From Catajapyx aquilonaris (lineage: Eukaryota), in the NCBI GenBank assembly GCA_000934665.2, contig JYFJ02002621.1, positions 49,727 to 69,726 on the forward strand: DNA of 20,000 nt, given 5' to 3'. The notes beneath the pieces are model-generated. The model made no database searches, was not told where the DNA came from, and saw nothing but the letters and a program-made list of their open reading frames with translations. Positions 963-3,440 of this stretch are shown here, in pieces. The first letter of the stretch is position 1. Each line of letters begins with the position of its first letter. Both the position numbers and the translations under genes were made by a program.

Positions 963-1101
963 CTGGGAATGGTGGATATGTTCACCCCAGCTGCAGACTT
1001 CAGTGGAATTTCTGGAAAACGTAACCTGCTGATATCAGAAGCAGTGCAGAAAGCATTCATTGAGGTGAATGAAGAAGGTGCTGAAGCTGCTGCTGCAACA
1101 G
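963..1101 (+). CDS. Serpin 1, last constitutive exon ending in the hinge (phase 0/1)
   Basis: tttag acceptor; [47 protein letters not shown], then ACA G|gtaagc donor. The hinge is of the inhibitory-serpin type. Confidence 0.95.
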
Positions 1102-1230
1102 GTAAGCAGTCTCTTTATATGGGTTTTTGTTGTGCTTTTATTGGAGCTTCATTTCAAATGTGAATGTCAGCTTTATAACAACATGCACGCACTCTTATTT
1201 AAAATTTCATTTACGTGCTTGCTTCTGTAG

Positions 1231-1400
1231 GTGCGGTACTTCGTGCCAGAAGAGCATTAGAAGATGTAATTGGCTTCAGAGCTGACCACCCATTTTTGTT
1301 TGCCTTAACACAAAAACATCCTCTGAGCGCACTATTGTTTGTGGGAGCTTTGATAAAGCCAACCTCTGAACCTGTTGTATCACTGCATGAAGAATTATGA
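1231..1400 (+). CDS. Serpin 1 alternative RCL terminal exon A (furin/proprotein-convertase-type bait RARR-A, C-terminal HEEL)
   Basis: gcttctgtag acceptor, phase 1; (G)AVLRARRALEDVIGFRADHPFLFALTQKHPLSALLFVGALIKPTSEPVVSLHEEL*. Serpin signature FRADHPFLF...LLFVG...P. Confidence 0.92.
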
Positions 1401-1530
1401 TTTGGTGTTTGTGTATGTTGAGGTTCAATGTGATGAGGTGTGCTACAAGGGCAAAAGGTGTCATCCAGCTGACTAACTTCCACTAACATAGGCCTATCAA
1501 ATTATAATGCACTCTTTTGCATTCCTGTAG

Positions 1531-1673
1531 GTCTTGTTATGGTTGGATTTGCTCGGCCATCAGCACCCGACCTAGTTCACAATTTCAGAGCTGATCATCC
1601 ATTTATATACACCATCCGTGAAGCACAGACCGGAACTGTCCTGTTTATGGGGGCATACCAGTCACCCAAATAA
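1531..1673 (+). CDS. Serpin 1 alternative RCL terminal exon B (predicted P1 Phe)
   Basis: cttttgcattcctgtag acceptor, phase 1; (G)LVMVGFARPSAPDLVHNFRADHPFIYTIREAQTGTVLFMGAYQSPK*. AATAAA overlaps the stop (1669-1674). Not in the ORF track; translated by hand. Confidence 0.92.
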
Positions 1674-1951
1674 AATTTGATCTAATTTGTAAAGTCAAAA
1701 ATGACAGGACTAGTGGTTGACAAGCCAGTTGTGTACTTGTGTGACGTAACCTGGTGGATTAAGACGTACCACTTATGCTGCATTATGCAGTGACATCAGA
1801 ACAGTGCAATGGTGTCATAACAAAATGTTCCCCATATAATGTGCCTTTTGTCTCCTATGAAGCTTAGGCTACAGTTTATGTTGTAACTTGGAAAGGAATA
1901 AAAACAAATTCTGACAAATTTATGACAAACAAATTTGTGACTACCCCACAG

Positions 1952-2091
1952 GAGTGGTTATCACCAACAAAATGATGGTGCTGCCCAAGGCTACCTTTAA
2001 AGCAGATCATCCATTTGCCTTCTTCATTTCTGATGCACTAACTCGGACAATTTTGTTTGGTGGAGTGATGGCAAAACCTTCCACAAACTAA
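1952..2091 (+). CDS. Serpin 1 alternative RCL terminal exon C (predicted P1 Lys)
   Basis: ctaccccacag acceptor, phase 1; (G)VVITNKMMVLPKATFKADHPFAFFISDALTRTILFGGVMAKPSTN*. Not in the ORF track; translated by hand. Confidence 0.92.
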
Positions 2092-2221
2092 TAGGTATAT
2101 GGATTCTCATCCTTCTTGTTACAGCACTAATCTTTGAGAATGCAATGTTTGGGAGTTCGCACAGTGTGTGCCACTTTTCGAGTTTTTATGCGCACTGTAT
2201 TTGTCATAATTCCATCTGCAG

Positions 2222-2358
2222 GTATAAGCTTCGAATTTCTGGTTGACATCCCAGTGCCTGCATTTGAGGCTGACCATCCCTTTGCTTTTTTCATTCACTC
2301 AGCAGGGACCATCATATTTTCAGGCATATATGTAATGCCACCAGATGTATCAACATAA
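2222..2358 (+). CDS. Serpin 1 alternative RCL terminal exon D (predicted P1 Leu)
   Basis: ttccatctgcag acceptor, phase 1; (G)ISFEFLVDIPVPAFEADHPFAFFIHSAGTIIFSGIYVMPPDVST*. ATTAAA at 2379-2384. Confidence 0.9.
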
Positions 2359-2559
2359 GTCTGAATATCATGATTCCCATTAAAACTGGCTTTGAAGCTT
2401 GCCTTTAACAGCCTATGCATTCACATTTTGCTACCTTGCCTGCATCAATGTTATAAAGCCCTTTAATAGTGTATCAAGAGTTGAATTTCAAAACTATCAG
2501 TTCACCCTTGTTCACATGTACACTAGTTGTTGAAAAAATTGCCTTGTACCCCCATGCAG

Positions 2560-2660
2560 GTGTGGGTGGAAGCATGAGTGAGCGTGACTTGATTCATGCA
2601 TGCTTCCATCCGTGCCTGTTTGGTTGGCTGCTTGGCACTGCCTGTGGGGGTACAAGGTAG
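2560..2660 (+). pseudogene. Possible degenerate RCL exon of serpin 1
   Basis: gccttgtacccccatgcag|GT acceptor in phase 1 gives (G)VGGSMSERDLIHACFHPCLFGWLLGTACGGTR*. FHPCLF resembles DHPFLF, but the exon is short and lacks a clear LF.G..P terminus. Confidence 0.3.
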
Positions 2661-2875
2661 TTTTATCCAGCACTGGACCACGGGCAGATTTACTGGTATA
2701 TTCAGTAGGTGTATGTATTAGCAAGGTATTAGTGAATCTACCAGTTAGCTGTGCTGATCAGAAACTAATTTTAGCACCATTCAGATATACTGAACATGTT
2801 TTGAGATGCAAATCGTCAACTTTTATGTCCTCCTATTAGAATCTTTGGGAATAACTCAGGCATTATCATTTTCAG

Positions 2876-3009
2876 GTATTGTTATAGAAGCAGTTGCTTA
2901 CTACCCACCACAATTGTTTGTGGCAGACCATCCATTTGCGTTCTTCATTCAAACTTCTGAGGCCATTCTGTTTGCTGGCACCTATGTAAACACACCTTCT
3001 AGCATGTAA
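2876..3009 (+). CDS. Serpin 1 alternative RCL terminal exon E (predicted P1 Val)
   Basis: tcattttcag acceptor, phase 1; (G)IVIEAVAYYPPQLFVADHPFAFFIQTSEAILFAGTYVNTPSSM*. AATAAA at 3062-3067. Confidence 0.9.
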
Positions 3010-3303
3010 TGGGTTGTAAGTTAATTCATTGACTGTTCCTATGCAATAGTGACTGCTCTTCAATAAAATTTCATTTCACAATGGATTTCTTAAACTGCCC
3101 TGAAGTCACATGTACTATGTTTTACGTTTCTTTTTTTGTGACAATCCCTCTGTTGAACTAACAGTGTCTTCTCTACTAACATTTGCACCATCACGCACAC
3201 ATAAATCCAATGACGCCATGCTGAGCACATAACAGAAGGAATGCTTAAAACGCTTTCAGCACATATATATTCAGAATTAACACATGCTGTCAAACTCCTG
3301 TAG

Positions 3304-3440
3304 GTATTTCAATGATGCGTTCTTTGCAAGAGGAATTCACTTTCTTTGGGAACCACCCATTCATATTTGCAATACAATTACACACAAGCAACACCACCCC
3401 TATACTATATTTGGCAGCATTCCTGAGACCTCAGAGTTAA
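3304..3440 (+). CDS. Serpin 1 alternative RCL terminal exon F (probable P1 Arg, MMR-SL)
   Basis: actcctgtag acceptor, phase 1; (G)ISMMRSLQEEFTFFGNHPFIFAIQLHTSNTTPILYLAAFLRPQS*, with F.GNHPFIF and ILYLA...P serpin C-terminal motifs. It lies in a different frame from ORF-track 3284..3505. AATAAA at 3753-3758. Confidence 0.87.

Follow-up and report, generated by a model that had tools for sequence, protein, structure and literature searches.

A serpin gene with six candidate loop exons

The stretch analysed here, called the window, comprises 20,000 nucleotides (nt) of contig JYFJ02002621.1 (positions 49,727 to 69,726 of the forward strand), and all coordinates below count from its first base. 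Near its start, on the + strand, positions 695-3760 hold the 3' part of a serpin gene, in which a constitutive exon and a hinge exon are followed by six short segments, cassettes A to F, each encoding a different reactive-centre loop and ending in its own stop codon. A second serpin gene and a FAM120B-like gene occupy parts of the remaining sequence. The gene of 695-3760 is very likely an animal serpin gene of inhibitory type and multi-loop design, represented by its 3' part, in which any of six loop exons can be spliced to one hinge.

Homology was assessed with the Pfam Serpin model (PF00079; 370 model positions, cut-off 27 bits), which is independent of the locus. Splicing was assessed with X1, one public run from one study that is kept as contigs and carries no record of its library type. 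Of the words sampled from 650-3650, 79% occur in X1, and alignment of its contigs to bases 1-4000 gave nine records and four joints. The constitutive exon (695-883, +) has 63 codons, is in phase 0 at both ends and matches Serpin positions 219-282 (E 1.1e-8, 35.1 bits); a query with this exon found no longer relatives. An X1 contig spans 695-881 and is joined to 961, which supports the exon as drawn, and the joint skips 79 nt, the length of the intron at 884-962 (+, GTGAAT...ATTTAG). The hinge exon (963-1101, +) matches Serpin positions 283-328 (E 4.9e-15, 56.1 bits over 963-1100). It ends in a single donor, GCAACAG|GTAAGC, after base 1101. This donor is in phase 1 and leaves one G of a split codon, and two different X1 joints start from it.

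Six acceptors follow, at 1231, 1531, 1952, 2222, 2876 and 3304. All of them read YAG|G after a pyrimidine-rich tract, in a phase that matches the donor. A preliminary description of this locus had proposed a phase-1 donor at 1101 serving six phase-1 YAG|G acceptors, each leading to a segment with its own stop. The donor was borne out (AACAG|GTAAGC at that base), and a sequence check found the acceptors, the stops and every coordinate to be exact.

The six loop cassettes

Translated together with the G left by the hinge exon, cassettes A to F give 56, 47, 46, 45, 44 and 45 residues, and their stop codons end at 1400, 1673, 2091, 2358, 3009 and 3440, respectively. All six are on the + strand; in the sequences that follow, a slash marks the scissile bond as first read. 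Cassette A (1231-1400) encodes G-AVLRARR/ALEDV...FRADHPF...SLHEEL-stop, 56 amino acids (aa) that combine a multibasic RARR/A loop with a C-terminal HEEL. It matches Serpin positions 337-370 at E 9.8e-4, and a leave-one-out cassette profile recovers it at E 1.3e-7. A tail of the KDEL type occurs in this cassette only (none of the five others). Cassette B (1531-1673, 47 aa) reads G-LVMVGF/ARPSAPDLVHN-FRADHPF...YQSPK-stop and matches Pfam at E 7.8e-8 (32.4 bits), while cassette C (1952-2091, 46 aa) reads G-VVITNK/MMVLPKAT-FKADHPF...AKPSTN-stop and matches at E 1.4e-6 (28.3 bits). For cassette C, an X1 joint proves a donor 3 nt past the stop, placing the end of the exon at 2094.

The three remaining cassettes are of similar length. 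Cassette D (2222-2358, 45 aa) encodes G-ISFEFL/VDIPVPA-FEADHPF...MPPDVST-stop, with a Pfam match at E 3.9e-3 and a leave-one-out match at E 3.6e-10. Cassette E (2876-3009, 44 aa) encodes G-IVIEAV/AYYPPQL-FVADHPF...NTPSSM-stop and matches Pfam at E 3.7e-5. Cassette F (3304-3440, 45 aa), which lies within an X1 contig covering 2874-3760, encodes G-ISMMRSLQEEFT-FFGNHPF...FLRPQS-stop (Pfam E 0.017; leave-one-out E 2.9e-6); it is the most divergent of the six, with 19-31% identity to the others.

The F-x-(A/G)-(D/N)-H-P-F motif that the preliminary description had ascribed to all the segments is present in six of six (FRADHPF, FRADHPF, FKADHPF, FEADHPF, FVADHPF and FFGNHPF in A to F). Its remark that B, C and F were missing from the track of open reading frames (ORFs) fits their lengths: read from ATG, GTG or TTG they reach 44, 45 and 42 aa, below the usual 60-aa cut. 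The corresponding ORFs of A, D and E are 61, 74 and 67 aa long.

Family membership and age of the cassettes

Eight of the nine pieces sent to Pfam match Serpin. The hinge exon ends at model position 328, and all six cassettes cover approximately positions 334-370 of 370. Cassettes B and C score above the Pfam cut-off; A, D, E and F fall below it, yet are aligned to the same last ~35 positions. For this gene, the window holds only Serpin model positions 219-370.

A profile made from the six cassettes was run against all 902 six-frame ORFs of the window. It returned the six cassettes at E 1e-20 to 1e-23, followed by the C-terminus of the neighbouring serpin gene at E 7.5e-6, and thereafter nothing better than E 1.1. 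Because the six-cassette profile contains its own targets, leave-one-out profiles were also made. These recover every cassette at E 3e-6 to 1e-12, with the best unrelated ORF at E of at least 0.17. The similarity among the cassettes is far beyond chance. No seventh cassette and no decayed copies were found by the profile in the 902 ORFs, and there is no frame break in any of the six.

Protein identity among the cassettes ranges from 19 to 45%, with D and E forming the closest pair (20/44 aa). Synonymous differences between cassettes are saturated (proportion of synonymous differences, pS, 0.60-1.04), and all 15 pairs have a ratio of the proportions of nonsynonymous and synonymous differences (pN/pS) below 1. 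Judged from these comparisons of sequence, the cassettes are old yet intact copies. That six frames are intact despite saturated divergence suggests that all six have been kept by selection, an argument from conservation that is not proof of use.

Transcript evidence

All four X1 joints are bounded by GT..AG and fall at predicted sites. One is the 79-nt intron at 884-962, which joins exon 695-883 to the hinge exon. Two start from the hinge donor: the intron at 1102-1530 (429 nt) joins the hinge to B (1101->1531), and that at 1102-2875 (1774 nt) joins the hinge to E (1101->2876). The fourth, at 2095-2875 (+, 781 nt, GTATAT...TTTCAG), joins the donor 3 nt after the stop of C to the acceptor of E (2094->2876). 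This last intron contains cassette D and a long hairpin, and it is also present unspliced, being retained in a contig that covers 2069-2902. Further contigs run unbroken from B through C (1529-2098) and from E through F (2874-3760). The latter starts at E's acceptor and ends 2 nt past an AATAAA hexamer at 3753-3758 (+), found by a motif scan and likely to be a shared poly(A) signal. The contig over 695-1103 extends in the 5' direction into sequence that departs from the window DNA before 695.

We take X1 to be complementary DNA (cDNA), because two joined forms leave from one donor, all the ends are canonical and the upstream sequence departs from the window. At least two cassettes are alternatively spliced, and in the forms seen the unused later cassettes ride in the mRNA as 3' untranslated region (UTR). 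The depths of the contigs cannot rank the isoforms. No X1 contig lies over 1207-1474, where cassette A is found, and no joint leads to 1231, 1952, 2222 or 3304, although absence is not provable from the contigs of one run.

These joints bear on several claims of the preliminary description. Its proposal turned on junctions reaching more than one acceptor, and X1 joins 1101 both to 1531 and to 2876. The term "mutually exclusive" is apt at the protein level, since each cassette has its own stop. It fails at the RNA level, where in these contigs downstream cassettes are not excluded and stay as 3' UTR. The figure of at least six inhibitors goes beyond what is borne out, namely one scaffold, one donor, six loop exons and two used acceptors; the other four acceptors are without a junction in X1.

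The intron at 2095-2875 includes, between D and E, a near-perfect hairpin of 154 nt (2523-2676, +). Its RNA folding energy is -85.9 kcal/mol (z -8.5; none of 200 shuffles reached this stability), and it is present in the unspliced X1 contig 2069-2902. The hairpin has no Rfam match and may represent either a small inverted-repeat transposon or the precursor of a hairpin RNA. Inside it lies a candidate for a further cassette (2560-2660; CAG|GT, in the right phase, GVGGSMSERDLIHACFHPCLF...), which was rejected as it matched neither Pfam nor the cassette profile. Scans with Rfam and for tRNAs added nothing to the finding of a cassette array.

Predicted reactive centres and cellular address

P1 residues were predicted by counting 17 residues from the hinge Glu (P17). 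This canonical count predicts P1/P1' to be R/R in A, F/A in B, K/M in C, L/V in D, V/A in E and S/L in F. The P1 residues of the preliminary description agree with it for A to E (R, F, K, L and V); for F the same 17-residue count gives Ser, not the Arg that had been proposed. Reading A as RARR/A needs a loop one residue longer than that of alpha-1-antitrypsin, and P1 is still Arg by the canonical count. The earlier R/S reading of F needs a loop one residue shorter, and the P1 of this cassette is ambiguous, either Ser or Arg. On the usual reading of such predicted P1 residues, the array would be directed against convertase, chymotrypsin-like, trypsin-like and elastase-like proteases. The hinge fits the consensus of inhibitory serpins at nine of ten positions, the exception being Ala at P14.

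Cassette A carries the R-x-(K/R)-R pattern before the scissile bond, as R-A-R-R followed by Ala. In PMC2556349, HEEL is given as a variant of the endoplasmic reticulum (ER) retention signal, present on a sea urchin serpin with a dibasic loop. Isoform A probably stays in the ER and inhibits furin-like proprotein convertases. For the remaining five isoforms, secretion or a cytosolic location would be expected, according to the 5' end of the gene, which lies outside the window. With an ER tail and a furin-type site beside five non-retained loops, the gene would offer a convenient test of how splice choice determines which protease an inhibitor targets and where in the cell it resides.

Proposed splicing mechanism and alternative explanations

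We propose that the donor after 1101 divides a Gly codon between its first and second bases, and that the spliceosome would join this donor to any of the six downstream acceptors, presumably including those of A, C, D and F. The hinge exon would then provide P17-P8, the split codon Gly at P7, and the cassette P6 onward. The cassette would also provide strands s1C, s4B and s5B (the F-x-A-D-H-P-F and LF.G...P blocks), the C-terminus and the stop. One gene could thereby yield inhibitors with different bait residues, the predicted P1 being Arg, Phe, Lys, Leu, Val, and Ser or Arg.

Docking and selector pairing is the mode in Dscam and PGRP-LC. Duplex energies between the intron at 1102-1230 and the five regions upstream of B-F, compared with 40 shuffles each, did not rise above the shuffles and revealed no shared docking site (z-scores of -1.6, -0.1, +0.4, -2.2 and -0.6 for B to F). 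Separately, perfect complementarity over 11-12 nt links the hinge codons for VNEEG (1065-1078) with the codons for FFI in cassettes C, D and E (2018-2028, 2287-2298 and 2941-2951). This complementarity is probably a by-product of conserved motifs (GAA versus TTC), and chance alone would give about one 11-mer match in 2.9 kilobases (kb), though the segments could form a duplex in the pre-mRNA.

Several observations weigh against a six-loop gene of this kind. The transcript support comes from the contigs of a single run, whose RNA nature we infer from contigs that skip introns, and its joints reach two of the six acceptors (B and E), with none to A, C, D or F among the four listed. Transcripts that enter at B carry a spliced intron ~420 nt after the stop, which in some animals would mark them for decay. 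Cassette F scores poorly against Pfam (E 0.017) and is without the conserved Gly of the LF.G motif. Compared with solved structures, cassette A matches Spn42Da at E 0.46 and neuroserpin at E 0.86, the best match being HSP47 at E 0.013. As A has no special affinity to Spn42Da, its likeness to Spn4A is functional and not shown as orthology. The ER reading of A requires a signal peptide, and that peptide, the first ~218 serpin positions and the promoter would all lie outside the window. Finally, P14 of the hinge is Ala, where the consensus in PMC2770083 allows T, S or G.

Some of these points would equally suit an array that is partly dead, with only B, E and perhaps others being spliced and the rest surviving as non-coding relics in introns or the 3' UTR. 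Joints to only two of six acceptors in run X1 would be expected of such an array, as would the divergence of cassette F, both from the Pfam model and from its neighbours (19-31% identity). All six cassettes are nevertheless open from acceptor to expected stop despite their saturated synonymous divergence, the H-P-F core and an in-phase YAG|G acceptor are kept in six of six, and the profile scan found no frame-broken copies. Contigs drop rare variants, so that a missing junction says little, and we regard a partly dead array as unlikely. A little less unlikely is an arrangement of alternative last exons, in which each cassette is mainly terminal with its own poly(A) site and the run-through contigs are minor or unprocessed RNA. 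AATAAA or ATTAAA does occur either at the stop codon or shortly beyond it in B (1669), D (2379) and E (3062), but no poly(A) signal separates cassette A from B. Moreover, the contigs run unbroken from B into C (1529-2098) and from E through F to 3760, and 2094 is spliced to 2876. RNA ends are invisible in contigs, and shared and separate ends may coexist.

The joined forms might also come from a DNA run, as processed copies or as chimeras of the assembly, given that the library kind of X1 is listed as "?" with no RNA record. Against this, two joined forms leave from the same donor, four of four joints are GT..AG at predicted sites and the contigs are short, while the contig over 695-1103 continues in the 5' direction off the window DNA, as a spliced exon would. 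We consider this origin extremely improbable, and favour a multi-loop serpin gene in which the six loop exons share one hinge.

Comparison with known loop-cassette serpins

Loop-cassette serpin genes allow one locus to police several protease classes and evolve fast under host-pathogen pressure. Like the known members of this group, the gene at 695-3760 has a common hinge donor, tandem loop exons and, for two of six cassettes, transcripts that join the one to the other. It is a further example of an established design, not a new principle, and offers a compact one, with six old, intact cassettes within 2.2 kb. The preliminary description had likewise called the architecture known, and PMC10513286 documents the +1 position for many insect genes: 192 of 731 are alternatively spliced, 161 of those 192 at +1, with a mean of 7.3 proteins per gene and up to 21 in one wasp gene. 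Similar loop-exon patterns are noted for nematodes and urochordates in PMC4006314. The open-access literature yielded such loop-cassette arrays only for insects, nematodes and urochordates.

Manduca sexta serpin-1 reportedly has alternative versions of exon 9 that are joined to a common last exon. In the present gene, by contrast, downstream cassettes are retained as 3' UTR and one extra intron (2095-2875) is seen. What this gene shares with the C-terminally spliced insect serpins, M. sexta serpin-1 and Pteromalus puparum PpSerpin-1, is the +1 position and a separate stop for each alternative exon.

The gene also shares several features with Drosophila Spn42Da (Spn4), which likewise has one body, several 3' loop exons and a multibasic loop followed by Ala (RRKR/A there, RARR/A here). 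Spn4A ends in HDEL, whereas the ER signal here is HEEL. According to PMC4006314, Spn42Da has four loop exons, against six cassettes here, and one of the four has RRKR at P4-P1 followed by Ala and is aimed at furin. PMC2770083 places the furin-directed exon 5 before exons 6-8 and reports it as kept in all Drosophila species. On these two accounts (PMC4006314, PMC2770083), the furin-type cassette stands first in the array there, as it does here.

A dibasic loop with a KDEL-type signal is further known from the secretory-pathway serpins of deuterostomes (lancelet Spn-1, sea urchin Spu-Spn-1 and the neuroserpin lineage), with HEEL on the sea urchin protein. In PMC2556349, however, these are described without an intron at the hinge position and with a single loop, and are defined by head-to-head synteny with PDCD10. 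The downstream neighbours of the multi-loop gene in the window are another serpin and a FAM120B-like gene, and its 5' side falls outside the window.

The hinge exon is closest to clade-B-like serpins. A search with it of a 5.8-billion-protein library returned 2224 serpins among 2976 candidates, of which the best was 77% identical and none was identical. The gene's products are thus absent from that library, and gene models of this genome probably list too few inhibitors. Among 80 of the 112 confirmed metagenome loci with a relative of the hinge exon, none had two or more cassettes, 40 had one and 40 had none. Three eukaryotic metagenome contigs (L001-L003) encode a hinge exon that is 65% identical (L001:2570-2731) and is followed by an intron whose position, past ...AAAATG, is the same as here; the 1.5 kb that they contain downstream of the hinge exon has no loop cassette.

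We define a Spn4-type package as a +1 intron at the hinge, a leading ER-retained convertase cassette and trailing cassettes for other protease classes. It is doubtful, if conceivable, that the host lies outside the insects, nematodes and urochordates and that the locus therefore places such a package in another lineage, along with cassettes nested in the 3' UTR of earlier isoforms. If true, either the package would have been present in early bilaterians and would connect Drosophila Spn4 with the KDEL/HEEL serpins of deuterostomes, or it would have arisen twice. The nested cassettes, together with an intron spliced past the stop, could tie the choice of isoform to mRNA decay.

Neighbouring genes and minor elements

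A second, distantly related serpin gene lies at approximately 7226-16276 (+), with exons at 7226-7411, 10303-10479, 10545-10761, 12061-12272, 12516-12701, 12794-13090 and 16118-16276. It shares with the multi-loop gene its family, its strand and the position of the intron before the hinge exon (...KQ| here, ...EQ| in the multi-loop gene), and the two are identical at 15/63 and 22/47 aligned columns. In the neighbour, unlike the multi-loop gene, one exon (12794-13090) encodes the hinge, the only loop and the C-terminus, and ...AAAATG is not followed by an intron. Its predicted P1 is Leu, and its last exon encodes a C-terminal extension of 52 residues without a Pfam match.

The long first coding exon of a FAM120B-like gene (constitutive coactivator of PPAR-gamma-like, XPG/PIN-type) lies at 17470-18714 (-). 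Its best library matches are 37-43% identical, the top full-length match in an exhaustive search being 37% identical, and the long proteins matched were only from vertebrates (30-42%). Best matches of only 37-43% suggest that the host lineage is poorly sampled. In the Atlas, clusters of Chordata and of Arthropoda scored equally.

At 11060-11140, a perfect inverted repeat (...atatcaatatactcgctttgcgag / ctcgcaaagcgagtatattgatat...) lies on either side of a run of ~40 G residues containing the window's single N, and the structure has the appearance of a fold-back or gap artefact of assembly rather than of biology. A repeat resembling a tRNA-headed short interspersed nuclear element (SINE) is present in two copies, at 5400-5610 (-) and 14465-14870 (+). 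Rfam scores a tRNA at 5549-5607 at 28.3 bits, just below the cut-off, and a poly(A) run terminates the copy at 14465-14870. Two palindromic elements, at 14326-14408 and 18920-19049, resemble generic microRNA-like hairpins, score well below the Rfam gathering thresholds and are probably small inverted-repeat transposons.

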